From a virus (lineage: Duplodnaviria; Heunggongvirae; Uroviricota; Caudoviricetes): a stretch of 18,960 bases of DNA. The DNA is taken from IMG/VR virus record IMGVR_UViG_2585427767_000004. The stretch is one strand, 5' to 3'. A program made the position numbers and the translations under genes. Positions 2,495 to 12,596 of the stretch are shown piece after piece (within the stretch, counting starts at the first letter, position 1; each line of letters opens with the position of its first letter). Below the pieces are notes generated by a model. That model was given only the letters and a program-made list of their open reading frames with translations, did no database searches and was not told the origin of the DNA.

Positions 2495-3865
2495 ATGACT
2501 CTGAATGAATTTTCATCAACCACAGCATCTATTTTTGGTAATTTTGAAAAAATCATAAGAATGCTAAAAAGCATAAGTGACCCTAAATACATAACCGTTG
2601 CCAACAGAAGAAGCAAACTTTTGGGAAATATGTCCGAACATATTTCCATAATCAATAAATTCCATCCTTTCGCACATGCTGAATTCTTTACAAAAGAAGA
2701 AAAAGAAAATATCTTTTCACTACTAAAACTTACGGACAACTACATATCATCTATGATTTCTGATATTTTTTCAGATGATATTTATCGGAACATTATCACT
2801 ATCAATGATGATTTAATTAGGTATTCAAGAATATCTAAGTTTATCCAAGGCACGCATAATCAACCTAATACCTTAGCCATGTTCAAAAATCAAGCATCTA
2901 ATGAAATAGCCAAAGTGGTAGATCTGAAAAATGAAATTGAAATAAGTGCAACTCAAATCAGAGAGTTAGCAGTAAGAAATGCAAATTCTCATGATAAAAT
3001 CATTAAACTTGTTACGGACTTGAACGCCGAGACGAAAAAATTTGAAAGCGCCGGTTCTGAAATAGAATTCATACTAAAAAAGAGCAGAGATGCACTTATT
3101 GGTATAGAATCATCTAGTGAAAAGCTAAGAACTGTTGAAGAAACATTAAACAATATCGTTAATACAAACAAATCAATGCAAGACGAAATCATTAAAAAAT
3201 CTGCTGAGTCTGCCAGTGAGATTAAAAATCTCCTTGATAAAAAAAATGAAATTAAAGAATTAAAAACCATTATATCTGGTGAAATAAATAATGCGAAAGA
3301 ATTGAACTCTAAAGCTAATTCCGCATTGAATTTATCTGGAACATATAGGCTATCAAGACATTTTAGAGATGCATACAAAACCGCAAATAAAAACAAAAGG
3401 TTTTGGGCCTTTGTATCAATAGGAGCTGCAATCGTATGTATAGCATTCGTGGTTTATATGCTTGTCAAGATGAATGAAGTTAGTTCTTATCCTCCTACAG
3501 GCCAAGAGCCCAACTTATTATTATTATTCTTTGCTCGATTCTCAATGATTCCAGTATTAATAGGCTTCTTTGTATTTAGCGCCATACAATATGTTAAACA
3601 AAACAACATCAGTGAAGATTATGCGCATAAAAAATTGCTATCTGAAACTCTTGTATCTTTCAAGCAGGAAATCAATAAGAACGATACCGATAAATCATCA
3701 TTATTCATGGATAACATTCTTAAATCAGTATTAAGATCACCGCTTAGCTCCATAGACAAGAAGTCGCATCAAATGGAAATTGATAAAATAAACGAATTGA
3801 TTAATACGACATCTAAAATTAATAAAGAAATTATAGACCGCGTTTTGCCTGAGAAAGAGAAATAA
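2495..3865 (+). CDS. Hypothetical protein, 456 aa: coiled-coil-rich N-terminal domain, two predicted transmembrane helices, short C-terminal tail; candidate membrane effector (defence / superinfection exclusion); family not recognised
   Basis: Long uninterrupted ORF in a visibly AT-rich block, with ATG at 2495 and a weak GGA Shine-Dalgarno about 6 nt upstream. Residues about 309-330 (FWAFVSIGAAIVCIAFVVYMLV) and about 348-370 (LLLLFFARFSMIPVLIGFFVFSAI) are strongly hydrophobic. The N-terminal 300 aa are K/E/I/N-rich with heptad-like periodicity. No catalytic motif recognised. Confidence 0.8.
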   Translation: MTLNEFSSTTASIFGNFEKIIRMLKSISDPKYITVANRRSKLLGNMSEHISIINKFHPFAHAEFFTKEEKENIFSLLKLTDNYISSMISDIFSDDIYRNIITINDDLIRYSRISKFIQGTHNQPNTLAMFKNQASNEIAKVVDLKNEIEISATQIRELAVRNANSHDKIIKLVTDLNAETKKFESAGSEIEFILKKSRDALIGIESSSEKLRTVEETLNNIVNTNKSMQDEIIKKSAESASEIKNLLDKKNEIKELKTIISGEINNAKELNSKANSALNLSGTYRLSRHFRDAYKTANKNKRFWAFVSIGAAIVCIAFVVYMLVKMNEVSSYPPTGQEPNLLLLFFARFSMIPVLIGFFVFSAIQYVKQNNISEDYAHKKLLSETLVSFKQEINKNDTDKSSLFMDNILKSVLRSPLSSIDKKSHQMEIDKINELINTTSKINKEIIDRVLPEKEK

Positions 3866-4110: not shown

Positions 4111-4162
4111 GCAGCTGCGCGGCAAGCCTGAAATCTGCTGGCATACTTTACGCTCGGTGCGC
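4111..4162. repeat. Direct repeat R1 (about 51 bp), partner of 4306..4357
   Basis: GCAGCTGCGCGGCAAGCCTGAAATCTGCTGGCATACTTTACGCTCGGTGCG versus GCAGCTGCGCGGCCAGTCGGAAATCTGCTGGCATACTCTGCGCCCGGTGCG, near-identical by eye. Additional copies of a TGCTGGCA-like motif occur nearby (e.g. about 4091, 4181, 4362). Confidence 0.6.
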
Positions 4163-4305: not shown

Positions 4306-4357
4306 GCAGCTGCGCGGCCAGTCGGAAATCTGCTGGCATACTCTGCGCCCGGTGCGG
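4306..4357. repeat. Direct repeat R2 (about 51 bp), partner of 4111..4162
   Basis: See R1; same orientation, about 195 bp apart, in a GC-rich segment with no convincing ORF. Confidence 0.6.
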
Positions 4358-4512
4358 TCGCAGAACTGCTGGCAGACAGTCCTTTCTTCATTTACCCACT
4401 ACCTGGACACAAAGCGTTGTACGTCCAGTTTGGGGGCGAATTATGATTAGGCAGGCTCCGGCAGTGCTCCCGGCTCTGTCAAAATTTAGTGACGTAAAGT
4501 CATGGAGGATCG

Positions 4513-4644
4513 GTGGGAGGAGGTGCAAATCCTCTCATACAAAAAATACGTAAAATCGGTAACGGCTGGAAATAATTCAATACTTGCACTATCGGAAGTT
4601 CACCAGCCAGCCGCAGCACGTTCTTGCATACGACGTGCCTGCGG
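4513..4644. repeat. Direct repeat A (about 130 bp), partner of 9108..9234; ends in a stem-loop
   Basis: Aligns by eye to 9108..9234 at roughly 80 percent identity (shared CAAATCCTCTC...GTAAAATCGGTA.C.GCTGGAAAT.ATTCAA...GCACTATCGGAAGTTCACCAGCC..CCGCAG). 3' hairpin CCGCAGCACG-loop-CGTGCCTGCGG followed by TTT. Confidence 0.7.
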
Positions 4645-5349
4645 TTTCAACTCCCGCCAGCCCACCAATCATGATTGGACGGTGTAAGGACAACACCAAA
4701 AAAACATGAAGTTAGCAGTCTCAGCGGAACACCGACCAGACGGTAAGCAGACAAAAAAGGATAAGCAAAGGAGCCGCAGTTCCCTAATGACACGAAAGCC
4801 CGCATTCTGATTAATTTGCTGTGCTTCACCTATCTCCATCAATAAAAACCATTCTTTTATAGCTTGTATATGCCAACTTGGCATGAATGCTTGTGATGAG
4901 TGAGGTGTGAAAGTTAGACGCAACATCCCCCTAGCGCCCACTCATTGCTATCGACGCCTTATTTTCAACATCAATGCAAATAGAAGTATGAAGATCGATG
5001 ATAGTAAACATTAGGTTAAAAAAACACGTAGTACTCTCCTTGGAGTATGAAGACGTTACTCACTTTAAGATTAGCATCCTCAAACCACTGTGAATTTGCT
5101 CCCATACGGAAAGAGGTGACTCAGACCTACAAAAATTTGTCAGGCCCGAAGGGTATCTTGCGCCAGCATAAAATACTGGATATAACCTAACTATTCATTT
5201 TAGCAATAGCCATTGCTTACGAGAGCTAGCTAATCTACGTAAATGCTAGGCATAACAGTGTCTTTAAAAGATATAGGTGGAATAAGTTCTGAAGTATGAG
5301 TGCTCTTCTTTTTCATCTATTCGTAATCAAAATGTGGATGTGATTGTTA

Positions 5350-8300
5350 ATGACAAATAAAAAAAATTTGAGTAATCCTTTTTCTACAGGCGGAGGCGGT
5401 GTTCATTTTGAAGCACATGTCCAAGCGTCTTTTGTTGCTCTAATGCTAACAGGCGGTAATGCACCTTGTCTTCCTTGTTGGCCCATAGTGGAGATAAATC
5501 TCCAGGGCAAGATTGATGGTTTTGATACCGACGACTTGATCGTCGTTGTTAAAGATTTCAACAGCAATGAAAAACGGAAGCTATTAGGACAAATAAAGCA
5601 TTCTATTTCATTTACGCAAGGTAATGCGATACTTGGGGAAGTTATACAGGCTGCTTGGAACGATTTCAACAATCCTGACTTGTTTACCAAGAACAAGGAT
5701 GTTATTGCACTGATCACCGGTCCGCTCAGTTCGACCGATACACACAATGTGCTCTGGTTATTGAATCAGGCTAGACACACAAAAACAGTCGATGAATTTT
5801 TGAGGAACGTTCAAAAAGCCAAGTTCAGCCCGCCTAAAAGTACTGAGAAACTGGAGGCCATCCAGTTTCATCTGAAGATGGCAAACAGTGGGAACGATTT
5901 AACAAACGATGAGCTTTATGACTTTTTGAACCATTTCCATTTACTAGGGTACGATCTGGGTAATGAATCAGGCGTCGTCCTTTCTTTGCTGCACTCCCAC
6001 ATAGCGCAATTCCATCAACAGTATCCTCAGTGGGTTTGGTCGCGGATAGTTGATATCGTACAAACTTGGAATAAAGATGCTGGCACTATCATTTCAAGTA
6101 AGCTACCTGAAGATCTTTTAGATGTTTTCAAACAAAGGGTTATTGCTGAAATACCTGAGAAGTTGAGGTTAGTACAACCGGTAGTCAAAACCGACTGGAC
6201 TCACCACCCAGATGCCTCTTATTTAGCCTTAGCAGTGTTGATTGGGCAATGGAATGATAAAAATGAGTGTGACCGAAATGTACTAACCCAATTGCTTGGT
6301 ATCAGCTATGACGAATGGCTAAGGAAGGCTCGAGAGATTTTACATAGCCCAGACAGTCCTTTGTCCCTAAAAAACGGCATTTGGAAAGTAACAAATCGAA
6401 TGGAGCTATGGAGTCTTCTTGGATCCCGCATTTTTGATCAGAATCTTGAATTGTTTAAGTCTTCCGCGATTTCCGTACTCAAAGAGCCAGACCCTGCTTT
6501 CGAATTACCTGCTGAAGAGCGTTACGCTGCTAGTATTCATGGTAAGGTGCTGAAGTTTTCATCCACGCTGCGACAAGGTATAGCAGAGGGTTTAGCCATA
6601 ATCGGGAGTCGGCCAGAGGTTTGCGTTAACTGCTCTCAGGGGAATGCTGAAACTTCCGTTAACGTCGCAATACATACAATTTTGACTGATGCAAACTGGG
6701 TTTTATGGGGTAGCCTAAACGGTTTGCTACCAACTTTGGCTGAAGCAGCTCCTGCAAAATTTCTTGATGCAGTTGAGAAGGCAATGCGTCAGACTCCTTG
6801 TGCATTTGATGAGCTTTTTTCTCAAGAAGTAAATGGTATCACTGGTGGTAATTATCTGACAGGACTGCTATGGGCTCTAGAAGAATTAGCCTGGGATGAG
6901 CAATACCTAGTACGCGTCTGTGTTGTACTGGCCGAACTTGCCAGCCACGATCCTGGGGGCAAGTGGGCTAATCGACCATCTAACTCGCTTACTACTATAT
7001 TATTACCGTGGTTTCCGCAAACGCTGGCATCTATAGAAAAACGAAAAGTTGCAGTCAACGTCATCTTGCAGGAATGGCCTGACATTGCCTGGAATTTACT
7101 CGTCCAGCTTCTACCCGGTCACCATCAAACCTCTTCTGGGTCACACAAGCCCTCTTGGCGCCGAATAATCCCAGATGATTGGGAAAGCAAAGTGACTAAT
7201 CAGGATTACTGGTTGCAGACATCTTTTTATGCTGAGCTTGCCGTCAAAAACGCCGGAGAAGATATCGAACGCCTTACCTTGTTGATTGATAATTTTGATG
7301 GCCTTCCATCTCCTGCTTTCGAACATCTTCTTAAGCACCTCTCTTCGGAAACAATTAATTGTCTTAATGAAGAGCAGCGAGTTGTAATTTGGGATCATCT
7401 TCATCGATTCGCAAATAAACATCGGCGATTCTCTAATGCTAATTGGGCTTTACCTGATGATCTGCTGACCAAAATCGAAAATGTTGCCGAGCAACTGGCA
7501 CCTACCAATCCATTCAACTTATATCAGCACCTTTTTTCAAATCGAGATTTTGATCTTTACTTAGAAAATGGCGATTGGGAAGAACGGAGAAATAAACTCG
7601 AATCAAGGCGCGAATCCGCAATATCAGAAATTCTTAAGCAAGATGGCGCAGAAGGCGTTATTCGATTTGCAGATCACGTTTCTGCGCCCCATCAAATAGG
7701 AAGTGTACTCGGCACTATCAACGATGATGTGTTCGAAAAACTTCTTTTGCCCCGTTTCCTCAATACAAAAGAAAATAAGTATAAGGCATTGGTAAGCGCT
7801 TTTATTTGGAAGCGTTTCTATCTCAAAGGCTGGGAGTGGTTCGACAATCTGGATAAAGCTGACTGGACTCCTGAACAGTTAGGCCAATTCTTTGCTTATC
7901 TGCCTTTTAACAAGGAGACCTGGACCCGAGTCTCTCATTATCCTCAAGCTTCCGAGAACGAATATTGGGCTCGCACCGATGCAAATCCTGACCTGGGTGA
8001 AGGTGACCTTACTAGTGCCATCGATAAGCTGATTGATCATGGCAGACCTCTTGCGGCAATCAATTGCCTGTGCAGGATGCATCAGACAAAGCAGCCAATC
8101 GATACTGAACAGTGTATCCGCGCTTTGCTTGCTGCCACTTCAACTAACGAATCTAGCTCCAACATGGATGGTTACAACATAACTACCCTTATCCAATTTC
8201 TTCAGACTGATCCCAAAGTGAATCCGGATAATCTTTTTCAGATCGAGTGGGCTTACCTTCCATTGCTCGATGGTCACCAAGATGCTGTGCCTAAGTTCCT

Positions 8301-8892
8301 TGAGAATAAAATGGCTAATGATCCAGAATTTTTCTGCGAAGTAATCCAACTCATTTATCGTTCTGACAAAGAAGACAATATGACAAGTGAACCAACAGAG
8401 GAATTGAAAGCAATCGCAAAAAATGCCTGGACTCTTTTGTACAACTGGAAGACACCGCCAGGAAGCCAATCAAATGGGACGTTCAACGGAGAACGCTTTA
8501 CTGAATGGCTTCAGAAAGTTAAGGAGGGTTCTACGGCATCAGGTCACCTGGACGTTGCACTCAGCAAAGTTGGTGAAGTCTTGATTTATACTCCCTCCGA
8601 ACCGAATGGCTTGTGGATAAACCGAGAGGTCGCAGCTGCTCTCAACGATCGAGATGCTGAGAGTATGCGCAGGGGCTACATGACAGGAGCCTACAACTCA
8701 CGAGGTGTTTATTGTGTTGACCCAACTGGAAAACCTGAGAGAGAGCTAGCTGACCAGTTCCGGGCAAAAGCAGAAGAAGTGGAAAACGCTGGTTTTCAGC
8801 GATTCGCCGTTACCTTAAGAGATTTAGCGGTTGGCTATGACCACGAAGCTGCACAGGTTATCAGCAATCTAAATATTGGAGAGGATGATTAA
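5350..8892 (+). CDS. Large hypothetical protein (about 1180 aa), no P-loop; family not recognised; candidate stand-alone defence or toxin protein
   Basis: Uninterrupted 3.5-kb ORF. The track starts at TTG 5344, but ATG 5350 (MTNKKNLSNPF...) is the more likely start. Moderately AT-rich compared with the tail genes. No Walker A (GxxxxGK[ST]) found on reading the translation. Gly-rich N-terminus (FSTGGGGVHFEAH), CxxC pairs (CLPC, CVNC), Trp-rich helical remainder. Putative terminator just downstream. Confidence 0.85.
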   Translation: MTNKKNLSNPFSTGGGGVHFEAHVQASFVALMLTGGNAPCLPCWPIVEINLQGKIDGFDTDDLIVVVKDFNSNEKRKLLGQIKHSISFTQGNAILGEVIQAAWNDFNNPDLFTKNKDVIALITGPLSSTDTHNVLWLLNQARHTKTVDEFLRNVQKAKFSPPKSTEKLEAIQFHLKMANSGNDLTNDELYDFLNHFHLLGYDLGNESGVVLSLLHSHIAQFHQQYPQWVWSRIVDIVQTWNKDAGTIISSKLPEDLLDVFKQRVIAEIPEKLRLVQPVVKTDWTHHPDASYLALAVLIGQWNDKNECDRNVLTQLLGISYDEWLRKAREILHSPDSPLSLKNGIWKVTNRMELWSLLGSRIFDQNLELFKSSAISVLKEPDPAFELPAEERYAASIHGKVLKFSSTLRQGIAEGLAIIGSRPEVCVNCSQGNAETSVNVAIHTILTDANWVLWGSLNGLLPTLAEAAPAKFLDAVEKAMRQTPCAFDELFSQEVNGITGGNYLTGLLWALEELAWDEQYLVRVCVVLAELASHDPGGKWANRPSNSLTTILLPWFPQTLASIEKRKVAVNVILQEWPDIAWNLLVQLLPGHHQTSSGSHKPSWRRIIPDDWESKVTNQDYWLQTSFYAELAVKNAGEDIERLTLLIDNFDGLPSPAFEHLLKHLSSETINCLNEEQRVVIWDHLHRFANKHRRFSNANWALPDDLLTKIENVAEQLAPTNPFNLYQHLFSNRDFDLYLENGDWEERRNKLESRRESAISEILKQDGAEGVIRFADHVSAPHQIGSVLGTINDDVFEKLLLPRFLNTKENKYKALVSAFIWKRFYLKGWEWFDNLDKADWTPEQLGQFFAYLPFNKETWTRVSHYPQASENEYWARTDANPDLGEGDLTSAIDKLIDHGRPLAAINCLCRMHQTKQPIDTEQCIRALLAATSTNESSSNMDGYNITTLIQFLQTDPKVNPDNLFQIEWAYLPLLDGHQDAVPKFLENKMANDPEFFCEVIQLIYRSDKEDNMTSEPTEELKAIAKNAWTLLYNWKTPPGSQSNGTFNGERFTEWLQKVKEGSTASGHLDVALSKVGEVLIYTPSEPNGLWINREVAAALNDRDAESMRRGYMTGAYNSRGVYCVDPTGKPERELADQFRAKAEEVENAGFQRFAVTLRDLAVGYDHEAAQVISNLNIGEDD

Positions 8893-8918
8893 TCTAAACA
8901 CCTAAATGTGGAGAAACT

Positions 8919-8962
8919 GGCTGTCAATCGATGTTCCTGTCACAGACAGCCAAGTTTTAGTT
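8919..8962 (+). terminator. Putative Rho-independent terminator downstream of the large ORF
   Basis: GGCTGTC...GACAGCC inverted repeat (7-bp stem; inner CTGTC-ACA-GACAG hairpin also possible) followed by AAGTTTTAGTT, 27 nt after the stop codon. Confidence 0.5.
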
Positions 8963-9107
8963 ATTCGCTGATCTGCACTTAGTTGATGAATATAAACTCA
9001 TCTTAGCAACGTACCTCTCCCTCTTGATTAAAGGTAGCGTACATCGCCCCGTTGAACTCACAGCACTAACAGTCCTCGTGACAGTGGTTATCTGTGATGT
9101 AGAGTCT

Positions 9108-9234
9108 GTGGAGGCGGTTCAAATCCTCTCAGGCAAAAATATGTAAAATCGGTAGCAGCTGGAAATCATTCAACACCCGCACTATCGGAAGTTCACCAGC
9201 CATCCGCAGTAACTTGTCATGGCAAGACACTGCG
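9108..9234. repeat. Direct repeat B (about 130 bp), partner of 4513..4644; ends in a stem-loop
   Basis: Same element as repeat A. Its hairpin is CCGCAGTAACTTG-loop-CAAGACACTGCGG: the stem is preserved with different inner base pairs, i.e. compensatory changes relative to copy A. Lies immediately 3' of the minus-strand gene 9246..9533. Confidence 0.7.
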
Positions 9235-9245
9235 GATTCTTATGC

Positions 9246-9533
9246 TTAACGGATCAACAGCCAGACCAGCAGACACGCCACCACCGGCACAGCAAAATCC
9301 ATCAGGCTTGCCACATCCCAAGCACGCGGATCAAAACCGCCCCACCACGGCATATTCATTCGCTTGCCATGCCCGAACATTTCAATCCAGCGATATTCTG
9401 CCTGGGTATGTTCACGAGCGATGAAGAACGTACAACCAGCTATCGCACCGTAAGCCCAGTTTCCGGTAAAAAGACCAACCAGTACCTGCGCAGCCACAGC
9501 ACAAAGTGCATGAAGTAAGGGGCTTATATCCAT
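9246..9533 (-). CDS. Small hydrophobic (membrane) protein, 95 aa, last gene of the tail-fibre operon; function unknown
   Basis: ORF with two to three hydrophobic segments (LLHALCAVAAQVLVGLF, AVPVVACLLVWLLI). Follows the tail-fibre genes on the same strand with a 13-nt gap. Confidence 0.65.
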   Translation of the reverse strand: MDISPLLHALCAVAAQVLVGLFTGNWAYGAIAGCTFFIAREHTQAEYRWIEMFGHGKRMNMPWWGGFDPRAWDVASLMDFAVPVVACLLVWLLIR

Positions 9534-10539: not shown

Positions 10540-12596
10540 GATATTTTTTCTCCCATTTGTGTCTCGGTCAATTCTTTATGCCAGTTCCTAAAATTTCGAA
10601 TATGACCGAATAAGTGACGTTCACCCGTTGAAGTTTGCCCACCAAAACGAATGCTTGTATTCTTAGTTACATATCTCCACGCGGTTTTTTTAGGAACACT
10701 AGGAGGAATATCACCATTCAAAACAATATGAACACCATAATCTTTAGTAATTCTAAATCCAGCAACGAACTTTCTCTCTTTCGTTACCAGGTAACTATTA
10801 ACGCGTCCAGCATCTGCACCAACATCAATATAAGGGCTACCAGTATTTGCGGCAGTACCGCCACGGCAACCAAAAATAACGGCCTGGCCCGTTGGCACAC
10901 CGGAAAAATCCATTATACGTGGTGCTGCATTAGGAGGAAGTTCCCATTCCCAATTTCGATGAACTTCGGCTAAAATTGTAATAGGTGCGTCATACATATT
11001 ATTCTTAACAGGAATGTTAACCAAATCACTAGCGCGGGTAGCTGGTACGTCGTTAGTTATGATTAATGATGTTGCATGAGAACATTTCTCTACCTGAGCG
11101 GTTGCCGCCTTTATGTAATTTCCTGCGACCAATTCGCCGCCACTTTTAGCAAGCATTTCAGTACGAGCATAAACGCTCATATCTTCGGTAGCTTTAAATG
11201 TCGATTGGAAAAAATACCATCCACTAGCAGGATCATAATCAACGCGACTAGACAAAACATCACTAACTAGTTTAGCGGTATCAAGATCCAACATAGCATC
11301 AGCAATAAATGTGTTTCCGTTCCCGTCATCATTTAATTTTGAAATACGATGGCGAGCGCGACAACCAGCCCCCTTAACACGAATAGATATAGTAACATAT
11401 TCACCACCAACAACTGGAATCACACGGGATGTCCCAGTAGAAATCAACGTAACTGGCCCAGTGTCGGATGATTCTTTATAAGTGAATGTTGCTTGAGTAA
11501 AACCAAATTCATCAATAGAGTTTTCACTAACAGATAGACGGTTTGTATTTCTGTTCCAGTTCGCTGGTGAGTTACTATTAATAAAGTTATTAGTCGTAGT
11601 ACCTTCAATCAACAAACCATTTTTTTCGAAGCGTGGTTCGTCAATTGCAGCCTCCGTCAGTACACCAGATTTGTTAATGTAGGTTGCTTTCGATGCGCGT
11701 TTAAACTTTACAACCTTATCGCCAGGCATTGTTATTTCATCATCACCAATAACAATCTTTTTATATGATGGCGAAAAGCCCGTAATCATATCCAGTGAAT
11801 CGTTAAACGGTATCCACACATCGGGAAGCGGCTGCAAAACTTGTTTATACGGCTCCGCAGCCTGGCTTGCATACTCTCTGGCTGCGTCTTCACTTGCTTT
11901 AGCTGCTGTCTGGCTTGCTGCCGATGCTTTCGCCGAGTTCGCCGCCGCTGTTTCGCTCGCCTTTGCGTTGTTTTCACTGGTTTTTGCTGCTTTTTGGCTG
12001 TTGGCTGATGCAGTGGCAGAAATAGCCGCCTCGCTTGCAGATCCGGCTGCGGCACTCTCGCTTTCAGCTGCTGCATCCTGACTGTTTTTCGCCGCAGTTT
12101 CGCTGGCTTTAGCGTTCGTTTCGCTGGTCTTCGCTACCGTCTGGCTGGACTTTGCGTTAGTTTCGCTCGTCTTCGCTGCTTTCTGGCTGTTAGCAGCTGC
12201 AGTTTCGGATTTCTTTGCCGCCGCTGCGCTCTGAGAGGCGGCTTCAGCGTTGCGTGCTGCTTCTTCCACCATTGCCTCAAAACGACGCAATGCCTCCGGC
12301 ATGACATCATCTTCCGTCATGGCACCGAGAAAATCATTCAGCGTACCAGGTCTGGAACCTTCATAGACGGTAATGGTTCCGGCATGTGAAGGCGGAAAAC
12401 CTTCAACCAGCAGGGTGACGCTGTACTGGCCATGCTCAACATCCATGCTGTAACTCCCGGCTTCATCCGGATTTTCAGAGGCCACCGTGTTCACCAGTAC
12501 CGTGGTGCTGTTACGCTTTGCTTTGAGCTGAATAGTGCAGTTCTGTATTGGTTTTCCTGCACCGTCTTTCAGCACGCCTGAAATCTGTACTGCCAT
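10536..12596 (-). CDS. stf: Side tail fibre protein (lambda Stf-like) with Ala/Ser/Thr-rich repeat shaft and a distinct C-terminal domain
   Basis: N-terminus MAVQISGVLKDGAGKPIQNCTIQLKAKRNSTTVLVNTVASENPDEAGSYSMDVEHGQYSVTLLVEGFPPSHAGTITVYE closely resembles the lambda Stf N-terminus as I recall it. Start placed at ATG 12596 with GGAG 5 nt upstream; the track start at 12602 is an in-frame GTG. Confidence 0.9.
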   Translation of the reverse strand: MAVQISGVLKDGAGKPIQNCTIQLKAKRNSTTVLVNTVASENPDEAGSYSMDVEHGQYSVTLLVEGFPPSHAGTITVYEGSRPGTLNDFLGAMTEDDVMPEALRRFEAMVEEAARNAEAASQSAAAAKKSETAAANSQKAAKTSETNAKSSQTVAKTSETNAKASETAAKNSQDAAAESESAAAGSASEAAISATASANSQKAAKTSENNAKASETAAANSAKASAASQTAAKASEDAAREYASQAAEPYKQVLQPLPDVWIPFNDSLDMITGFSPSYKKIVIGDDEITMPGDKVVKFKRASKATYINKSGVLTEAAIDEPRFEKNGLLIEGTTTNNFINSNSPANWNRNTNRLSVSENSIDEFGFTQATFTYKESSDTGPVTLISTGTSRVIPVVGGEYVTISIRVKGAGCRARHRISKLNDDGNGNTFIADAMLDLDTAKLVSDVLSSRVDYDPASGWYFFQSTFKATEDMSVYARTEMLAKSGGELVAGNYIKAATAQVEKCSHATSLIITNDVPATRASDLVNIPVKNNMYDAPITILAEVHRNWEWELPPNAAPRIMDFSGVPTGQAVIFGCRGGTAANTGSPYIDVGADAGRVNSYLVTKERKFVAGFRITKDYGVHIVLNGDIPPSVPKKTAWRYVTKNTSIRFGGQTSTGERHLFGHIRNFRNWHKELTETQMGEKIS
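11855..12270 (-). repeat. Tandem short repeats inside stf encoding an (A)KTSETNAKAS-like Ala/Ser/Thr-rich shaft
   Basis: Protein residues about 112-250 consist of reiterated AAKTSETNAK / SQKAAKTSE / ASETAAKNS units; the DNA shows corresponding reiterated GCTTTAGC/GTTTCGCT/GTCTTCGC blocks. Confidence 0.55.

Follow-up and report, generated by a model that had tools for sequence, protein, structure and literature searches.

A recurrent leader–hairpin module of lambda-like phages as a probable terminator of accessory transcription units and homologous-recombination joint

A moron, in the description attributed to Juhala et al. (2000) where it is cited in PMC4104026, is an accessory gene inserted among backbone genes together with a promoter and a terminator of its own, and experiments have documented relaxed homologous recombination, by Red-type recombinases, of defective prophages with lambda at short stretches of diverged homology (PMC3945230; De Paepe et al. 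2014). Both descriptions bear on a tailed-phage sequence of 18,960 nucleotides (nt) from IMG/VR (IMGVR_UViG_2585427767_000004; Caudoviricetes), which is referred to here as the window, in which two imperfect direct repeats of about 130 nt, copies A and B, bracket an open reading frame (ORF) for a protein of 1180 amino acids (aa) and lie on the same (+) strand as this ORF. We consider that both copies would represent a single non-coding module of lambda-like phages, located on the stretch from the integration end to the tail-fibre genes, and that this module probably acts as the terminator of the leftward accessory region and at the same time as a joint for homologous recombination. The element would be a previously unannotated example of two known kinds of element, an intrinsic terminator of accessory units and a mosaic joint.

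The nearest counterparts of the window copies are in the b region of lambda, where there is a full copy on the leftward strand in the ea31/ea47 interval (24160–24340) and a copy of the hairpin alone just past the end of ea47 and before the convergent tfa (22572–22614). As these stand on either side of ea47, this gene is bracketed in lambda much as the 1180-aa gene is in the window. The lambda and window leaders are ~90% identical, both lie on the same strand with respect to the tail genes, and in each case one accessory gene has a full copy before it and a hairpin after it. Lambda differs in that its downstream element consists of the hairpin only, both window copies being full, in that its full copy lacks a U-tract (GGCUCUACC), and in that its cargo is ea47 rather than the 1180-aa protein. 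Neither of the two lambda records we inspected has an annotated feature at either position, and a literature search for lambda b-region transcripts and for the element sequence matched only lambda control primers.

The arrangement also resembles that of morons in having accessory genes of low guanine-plus-cytosine (GC) content between conserved backbone modules with a terminator hairpin after each, but differs from it in that the terminators share homology even where the cargo is unrelated, and are preceded by a conserved leader. The 1180-aa gene itself has an atypical GC content (0.40–0.45 compared with 0.50–0.62 for the tail genes) and is followed by the hairpin of copy B, but the promoter expected of a moron was not seen, as a crude scan of positions 4650–5350 found no sigma-70-like promoter (this does not prove its absence). 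The likeness to the mosaic joints discussed in PMC3945230 lies in a patch of ~100 nt which is 80–95% identical and common to unrelated segments, with flanks that reassort and junctions that fall within it. The difference is that a general process is described there and this element is not named, whereas here the joint occupies one defined position with a fixed polarity.

Global alignment of positions 4513–4644 with 9108–9234 gave 104 identities over 132 positions (78.8%), which confirms the direct repeats of about 80% identity that an earlier note on this sequence had placed on either side of the 1180-aa gene. Identity was 87.1% over 101 nt (4516–4616 and 9110–9209) and 88.9% in a 72-nt core, blastn aligned the two copies with E = 1e-29, and a repeat search paired them as repeats D3 (75 nt, 89%) and D5 (30 nt, 87%) with a spacing of 4593–4594 nt. 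Copy A spans 4516–4646 and copy B spans 9110–9237, with fainter similarity reaching ~30 nt farther upstream to ~4487 and ~9081. The hairpin portions are only 62% identical and both fold nonetheless, with predicted energies of -20.0 kcal/mol (z = -4.3) for copy A and -18.7 kcal/mol (z = -4.5) for copy B. The copy A hairpin has arms at 4609–4622 and 4632–4646, a loop at 4623–4631 and the tail UUUCAACU, and that of copy B has the outer stem AUCCGCAGU/ACUGCGGAU, the inner stem CUUGU/GCAAG and the tail UCUUAUGC. The shared outer stem (CCGCAG/CTGCGG) and the differing inner stems that still pair (GCACG/CGTGC in copy A and CTTG/CAAG in copy B), both pointed out in the earlier note, are thus as described.

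Both copies belong to a large family. A 146-nt query matched 5408 of 5426 complete Escherichia coli genomes (99.7%), at a median of three and a maximum of 11 places per genome, and the family is present in 192 phage records including lambda, phi80, mEp460, phiP27 and many Shiga toxin (Stx)-converting phages. Scans of IMG/VR with exact words returned more than 200 loci, and a profile made from these (nhmmer) found 234 places in the loci; it should be noted that the exact-word patterns bias this sample towards copies with conserved leaders. An alignment of 109 distinct copies could be divided into three layers: the hairpin, which is also found by itself; the leader of ~65 nt directly 5' of it; and an optional 5' extension of ~80 nt, which lies outside the universal core and is limited to one class that includes lambda and both window copies. 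Past the limits of the module, the flanks of different context classes are unrelated. In E. coli K-12 the full module is found in the Qin prophage between the truncated ydfJ and ynfT/ydfK, with hairpin-only copies in Rac (near ttcC) and DLP12 (just 3' of ybcY). Exact lambda-type copies were also encountered on short, low-coverage contigs labelled as Streptomyces, Enterococcus, Vibrio, Pseudoxanthomonas and others; the sequence of the contigs labelled as non-Escherichia is identical to lambda or E. coli, and these copies are most likely contamination with lambda or E. coli DNA.

The hairpin is conserved as a structure rather than as a sequence. There are more than 30 different combinations of stem sequences among 97 distinct hairpin variants, 91 of which reach -10 kcal/mol or better, and the mean energy of -17.6 kcal/mol compares with -9.0 kcal/mol for shuffled sequences. 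Length variants caused RNAalifold to overlook the hairpin in a plain MAFFT alignment, and folding of individual sequences and a gapless subset were used instead. In this gapless alignment of 32 sequences, the 14-base-pair stem is paired in 94.9% of cells (26–53% in slid controls), and four of the 14 pairs change on both sides (A-U/G-C, C-G/U-A, C-G/A-U and A-U/U-A). Changes on both sides were seen in 13 cells compared with 2.2 expected, a number which none of 500 shuffles matched, and further length variants of the hairpin carry other stems.

Direct evidence that one member of the family terminates transcripts on the element strand comes from the Term-seq data of Adams et al. (2021, PMC7815308) for MG1655, which list 'orphan' + strand 3' ends at positions 1632571 and 1632574. 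The printed flank of these ends is the Qin hairpin followed by UUUUU, and the ends fall at the close of this U5 tract. Together with the compensatory changes across the family, this bears out the suggestion that the repeats contain a conserved RNA hairpin of the terminator type, and we infer that copies A and B would also terminate transcription. We note that the Term-seq listing has no 3' ends at the Rac and DLP12 hairpins, and that it includes another 'orphan' 3' end (NC_000913.3, 1632744, +) ~170 nt downstream of the Qin copy and upstream of ynfT.

The orientation of the element is fixed. At loci with a homologue of tail gene J, the element was on the J strand in none of 77 cases and J was downstream in all 77, and the same opposite-strand and downstream arrangement was found for stf (58 of 58) and lom (54 of 54). 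Homologues of the 95-aa ORF which is the last of the tail region in the window were on the opposite strand in 42 of 42 loci and downstream in 41 of 42, at a median distance of 208 nt. The possibility raised earlier that the element is simply the 3' untranslated region (UTR) of the tail-fibre operon therefore does not apply here, as it lies opposite the tail-gene strand at all scorable loci. The commonest upstream ORF is a co-oriented DinI-like gene (Pfam PF06183), whose stop codon in 75 of 193 contexts lies 6 nt upstream of the leader, followed in frequency by a neighbour of the lambda ea31 type. Downstream neighbours are of two kinds, one being a convergent tfa, a member of the 95-aa ORF family or a Pin invertase starting 13–38 nt past the hairpin, and the other being further co-oriented cargo (ea47, a GIY-YIG protein, YdfK, a DUF4145 protein or the type III effector NleG). 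By this layout the module therefore marks the 3' end of accessory units pointing towards the late tail operon. In the window, 8 nt separate the end of the copy B hairpin from the stop codon of the convergent 95-aa ORF.

Evidence for the second role comes from comparisons of the sequences on either side of the module. The cargo segment of the window is 99.5–99.8% identical in seven E. coli genomes, and in each of the seven the match ends at window positions 9108–9208, inside copy B. Past copy B, the cargo is joined to three different tail modules: tfa with a long tail fibre, an acetyltransferase with tfa, and the 95-aa ORF with other tail genes as seen in the window. Conversely, sitABCD, ompT, a hydrolase and ybcY are found as other cargo in the same slot of related phages, as are NleG, GIY-YIG and DUF4145 proteins. 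The occurrence of the same cargo with different tail modules, and of different cargo in one slot, would be explained by crossovers within the shared module. When flanks of 88 nt per side were clustered for 133 distinct copies, 15 upstream and 22 downstream classes were obtained which occur in 46 combinations, and of the eight most frequent downstream classes, six or more are found with each of the two main upstream classes. The type of hairpin tracks the downstream module and leader variants track the upstream side; across the family, the variant type seen in copy B always has the 95-aa ORF module after it. These patterns suggest that the exchanges arose by homologous crossover, and they support the earlier proposal that the repeats are homologous-recombination boundaries. 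A reading in which the repeats are special to this cassette and arose through its insertion is not supported, as the module is ubiquitous in the lambda family and also occurs singly.

The features of the window discussed here are listed in Table 1.

Table 1. Parts of the two module copies in the window and the features next to them.
Feature	Position	Strand	Basis
Copy A, optional 5' extension	4487..4549	+	Alignment to copy B 9081–9142 and to lambda
Copy A, conserved leader (core), GTAAAATCGGTAACGGCTGGAAATAATTCAATACTTGCACTATCGGAAGTTCACCAGCC	4550..4608	+	Near-constant across 109 distinct family members
Copy A, terminator-type hairpin	4609..4646	+	Fold, family covariation, Qin 3' end
Putative fossil att core resembling the ssrA 3' end, with phage arm	4641..4800	+	Aligns with locus L003 5003–5160
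Cargo gene, 1180 aa, RefSeq hypothetical protein	5350..8892	+	ORF list
Copy B, 5' extension, including GGAGGCGGTTCAAATCCTCTC	9081..9142	+	Repeat D5 and alignment
Copy B, conserved leader (core)	9143..9201	+	Repeat D3, blastn, family alignment
Copy B, variant-type hairpin	9202..9237	+	Fold; type tied to the 95-aa ORF module
Final tail-region ORF (phrog_1443, 95 aa)	9246..9533	-	Convergent with the repeats

The model we favour is one in which the module would be located in the leftward-transcribed accessory region (the 'b region', a cargo or effector locus) and would consist of two parts, the near-constant leader of ~65 nt and the GC-rich hairpin acting as an intrinsic terminator for transcripts of the cargo strand. 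Each accessory transcription unit would be closed by one module, with copy A closing the upstream unit and copy B closing the 1180-aa gene, and termination would prevent antisense read-through of cargo transcripts into the late tail operon, which is convergent. The recurrent sequence of ~100 nt would also be a patch of homology for phage and host recombinases, since it is found in almost every lambdoid phage or prophage, and crossovers inside it would swap what lies on either side.

Several observations weigh against this model. The tails of both window hairpins are weakly U-rich (each has four U in 8 nt), and a simple scan for consensus terminators called neither copy. Some family members, including the full copy of lambda, have no U-tract at all; in the 8 nt past the stem, there are at least four U in 51 of the 97 variants and two or fewer in 29. 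A Term-seq 3' end is found at one of the three K-12 copies, with a low read count, and the recombination role is drawn from comparative patterns with no exchange having been observed. The leader is far more constant than the hairpin, and a role in termination gives no account of this: the sequence GTAAAATC..GGCTGGAAATCATTCAATACTCGCACTATCG.AAGTTCACCAGCC is near-constant over the 109 distinct copies with their unrelated flanks. There is some chance, though a rather low one in our view, that the leader itself functions as an RNA, either as a regulatory RNA derived from a 3' UTR or transcribed independently, or as a cis-acting element for processing or stability.

The earlier note had offered two copies of a small regulatory RNA as an alternative, and we regard it as unlikely that the element is a small RNA gene, or a small RNA derived from a 3' UTR, with copies A and B as two alleles of a trans-acting regulator. 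Such a transcript of ~95 nt would start after TAAAAT or be cut from the upstream mRNA, and would have a single-stranded leader as the seed and the hairpin as its end. An invariant 5' region followed by a covarying terminator stem is typical of base-pairing small RNAs, the RNA is predicted to fold into two stem-loops with a U-tail, and the 'orphan' 3' end in Qin has no annotated gene upstream on the same strand. There is also a -10-like hexamer at the 5' edge of the leader which keeps its key positions (A2 in all variants and T6 in nearly all, the forms being TAAAAT, CAAAAT, TATAAT, TAGAAT and TACAAT), but it has no -35 or extended -10 element, the site was not flagged by the promoter scan, and conservation begins only ~3–10 nt upstream of it. 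The first stem-loop of the leader (GGCUGG/CCAGCC) shows no compensatory change and its closing pair is broken in 12 of the 32 sequences, many copies lack the U-tail needed for Hfq binding, and the Term-seq signal at Qin is ~1000-fold below that of MgrR. The ydfJ–ydfK interval, which represents the K-12 copy only, is absent from the RIL-seq-based prediction tables and the Hfq CLASH supplements that were searched. The element has no Rfam family, and searches at both gathering and permissive thresholds returned only a sub-threshold match on the opposite strand between the hairpin and the 3' end of CssrB (RF02799, chromosome-encoded Shigella small RNA B). A 3'-terminal hairpin is what the two have in common, and CssrB was rejected as an identity with scores of 24.3 bits for the window (minus strand) and 18.4 bits for the lambda copy against a gathering threshold of 76, the match covering only the hairpin of the 180-nt model; it hints that the hairpin is used as a 3' end in both directions. 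The prophage anti-sRNAs AgvB and AsxR (Rfam RF02702 and RF02703) and the prophage small RNAs PasA–D are similar to the element in being non-coding, multi-copy in E. coli and fixed in position alongside sites of cargo insertion, with conserved terminator-proximal parts, but differ in having Hfq and Northern evidence. AgvB and AsxR are sited downstream of pR' (the moron site) and have no Rfam match in the window. The position of PasB in E2348/69 (~1466260–1466305, minus strand) falls in the interval from tail gene I to tail gene J, which in the window is a gap of only 60 nt, and the element is elsewhere.

We think it very improbable that the element is instead a DNA site, that is a phage att arm or a region bound by integrase, IHF or excisionase and kept for site-specific recombination. 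The copy A hairpin and those of ~15 other variants do adjoin an att core resembling ssrA, and many prophage-derived phage records have the element 0.3–1.5 kb from the end of the record, but the lambda copy is 3.5 kb from attP and at many loci the element directly adjoins tfa or another gene and has no att core in its vicinity. Nor is covariation that preserves pairing in the stem required of DNA bound by a protein, and an RNA 3' end maps to the element. It is also doubtful, to a lesser degree, that the leader is a functionless relic, such as an old dinI-like 3' UTR or a decayed tRNA or att fragment, which looks conserved through being homogenised by frequent recombination between lambdoid prophages, while the hairpin alone is under selection. 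The commonest context, directly downstream of a DinI-like gene, would fit this explanation, as would the hairpin-only copies, which are evidently enough at many sites, and the bias of our collection patterns towards conserved leaders. Against it, the leader varies less than the selected hairpin among copies with unrelated flanks, the orientation is invariant, and the leader is kept in the functional phages lambda and phi80. The combination of terminator and recombination joint remains the reading we prefer.

Other identities were also considered for the element and rejected. Coding potential is not borne out, since the frame of a 61-aa ORF running across copy A is disrupted by indels in copy B and no 3-nt periodicity is seen among the variable positions. 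No pair of inverted repeats bounds either copy, the 5' boundary varies by context class and hairpin-only copies exist, all of which speaks against a miniature inverted-repeat transposable element or the end of an insertion sequence. A tRNA or tmRNA gene was excluded by ARAGORN, which found none, and by the lack of any tRNA or tmRNA match in Rfam at E values up to 10, with only the ssrA-like fragment of 27 nt at 4641–4667. The 5' extension of copy A contains a stem-loop similar to a T-arm (GGAGG-TGCAAAT-CCTCT, ~4519–4535), which may resemble that of tRNA-Pro, but a tRNA-like reading of the extension was rejected because neither ARAGORN nor Rfam called a tRNA.

The ssrA-like fragment of copy A deserves separate comment. 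Here the 3' arm of the hairpin continues into GCGGTTTCAACTCCCGCCAGCCCACCA, which corresponds to the 3' end of ssrA with two mismatches in 27 nt. In strain MS21324 (locus L003), where a lambdoid prophage is integrated at ssrA and the annotated tmRNA gene ends at 5028, the sequence after the genuine ssrA is matched by the ~130 nt that follow GCGGTTTCAACTCCCGCCAGCCCACCA in the window. Judged by sequence, the window holds an uninterrupted attP-like arrangement overlapping the copy A hairpin, and the junction of hairpin and ssrA-like sequence recurs in ~15 distinct family members. For this subclass a role as an att arm is conceivable, which is not the case for lambda and the majority of copies. The lambda tI/sib element combines a terminator and an RNase III site next to attP and is comparable to copy A in that a hairpin on the int–cargo strand lies by an att core. 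It differs in that the hairpin of copy A is on the int side of the core, so that integration would not part it from int, and in that most family members are not by an att core. We also note that positions 1–702 of the window, ~4 kb from the attP-like core, encode a 233-aa integrase fragment (Pfam Phage_int_SAM_2 and Integrase_1) which is too short for a full tyrosine recombinase.

Some further observations concern the repeats themselves. Each leader contains GCTGGTGA on the tail-gene strand (minus strand, 4600–4607 and 9193–9200), which matches the Chi octamer GCTGGTGG at seven of eight positions, and no perfect Chi was found at this site among the sampled family members; we presume that this may be the site of the lambda chi+B mutation. 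A RefSeq 39-aa 'capsid protein' (WP_106121378.1) spans the element on the opposite strand at three loci (L001 16644–16763, L231 10099–10218 and L233 9965–10084), at a position equivalent to ~9130–9248 on the minus strand of the window; here non-coding sequence has probably been miscalled as a gene. A second direct repeat is present in GC-rich sequence just upstream of copy A (4111–4161 and 4306–4356; 51 nt, 88% identity, 195 nt apart).

The 1180-aa protein matches only one family, phrog_18693, which is of unknown function, and has no match in Pfam, NCBIfam, PADLOC or PDB. Near-identical copies of the gene were found in only ~8 E. coli genomes, in the same slot each time. Elsewhere in the window, a 456-aa ORF of very low GC content (2495–3865; 0.32–0.40) has weak matches to the DruC and ZorA defence models (E = 1e-4 and 2e-3), and the 688-aa side tail fibre gene has internal repeats of 33–72 nt at 11881–12207 with periods of 42, 63 and 147 nt.

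The leader is conserved in lambda and in 99.7% of complete E. coli genomes and has neither an assigned function nor an Rfam family. If it were a functional RNA, then an element common to lambda and to nearly all lambdoid prophages of E. coli would have stayed unannotated despite decades of work on lambda. As a probable terminator and joint, the module of ~100 nt with its fixed polarity would be a general landmark for the ends of accessory units and for crossover points in lambda-like prophages. It could be used to delimit and catalogue the cargo genes of E. coli, including virulence effectors, defence candidates and transporters, and would account for the movement of cargo between phages which have different tail modules.

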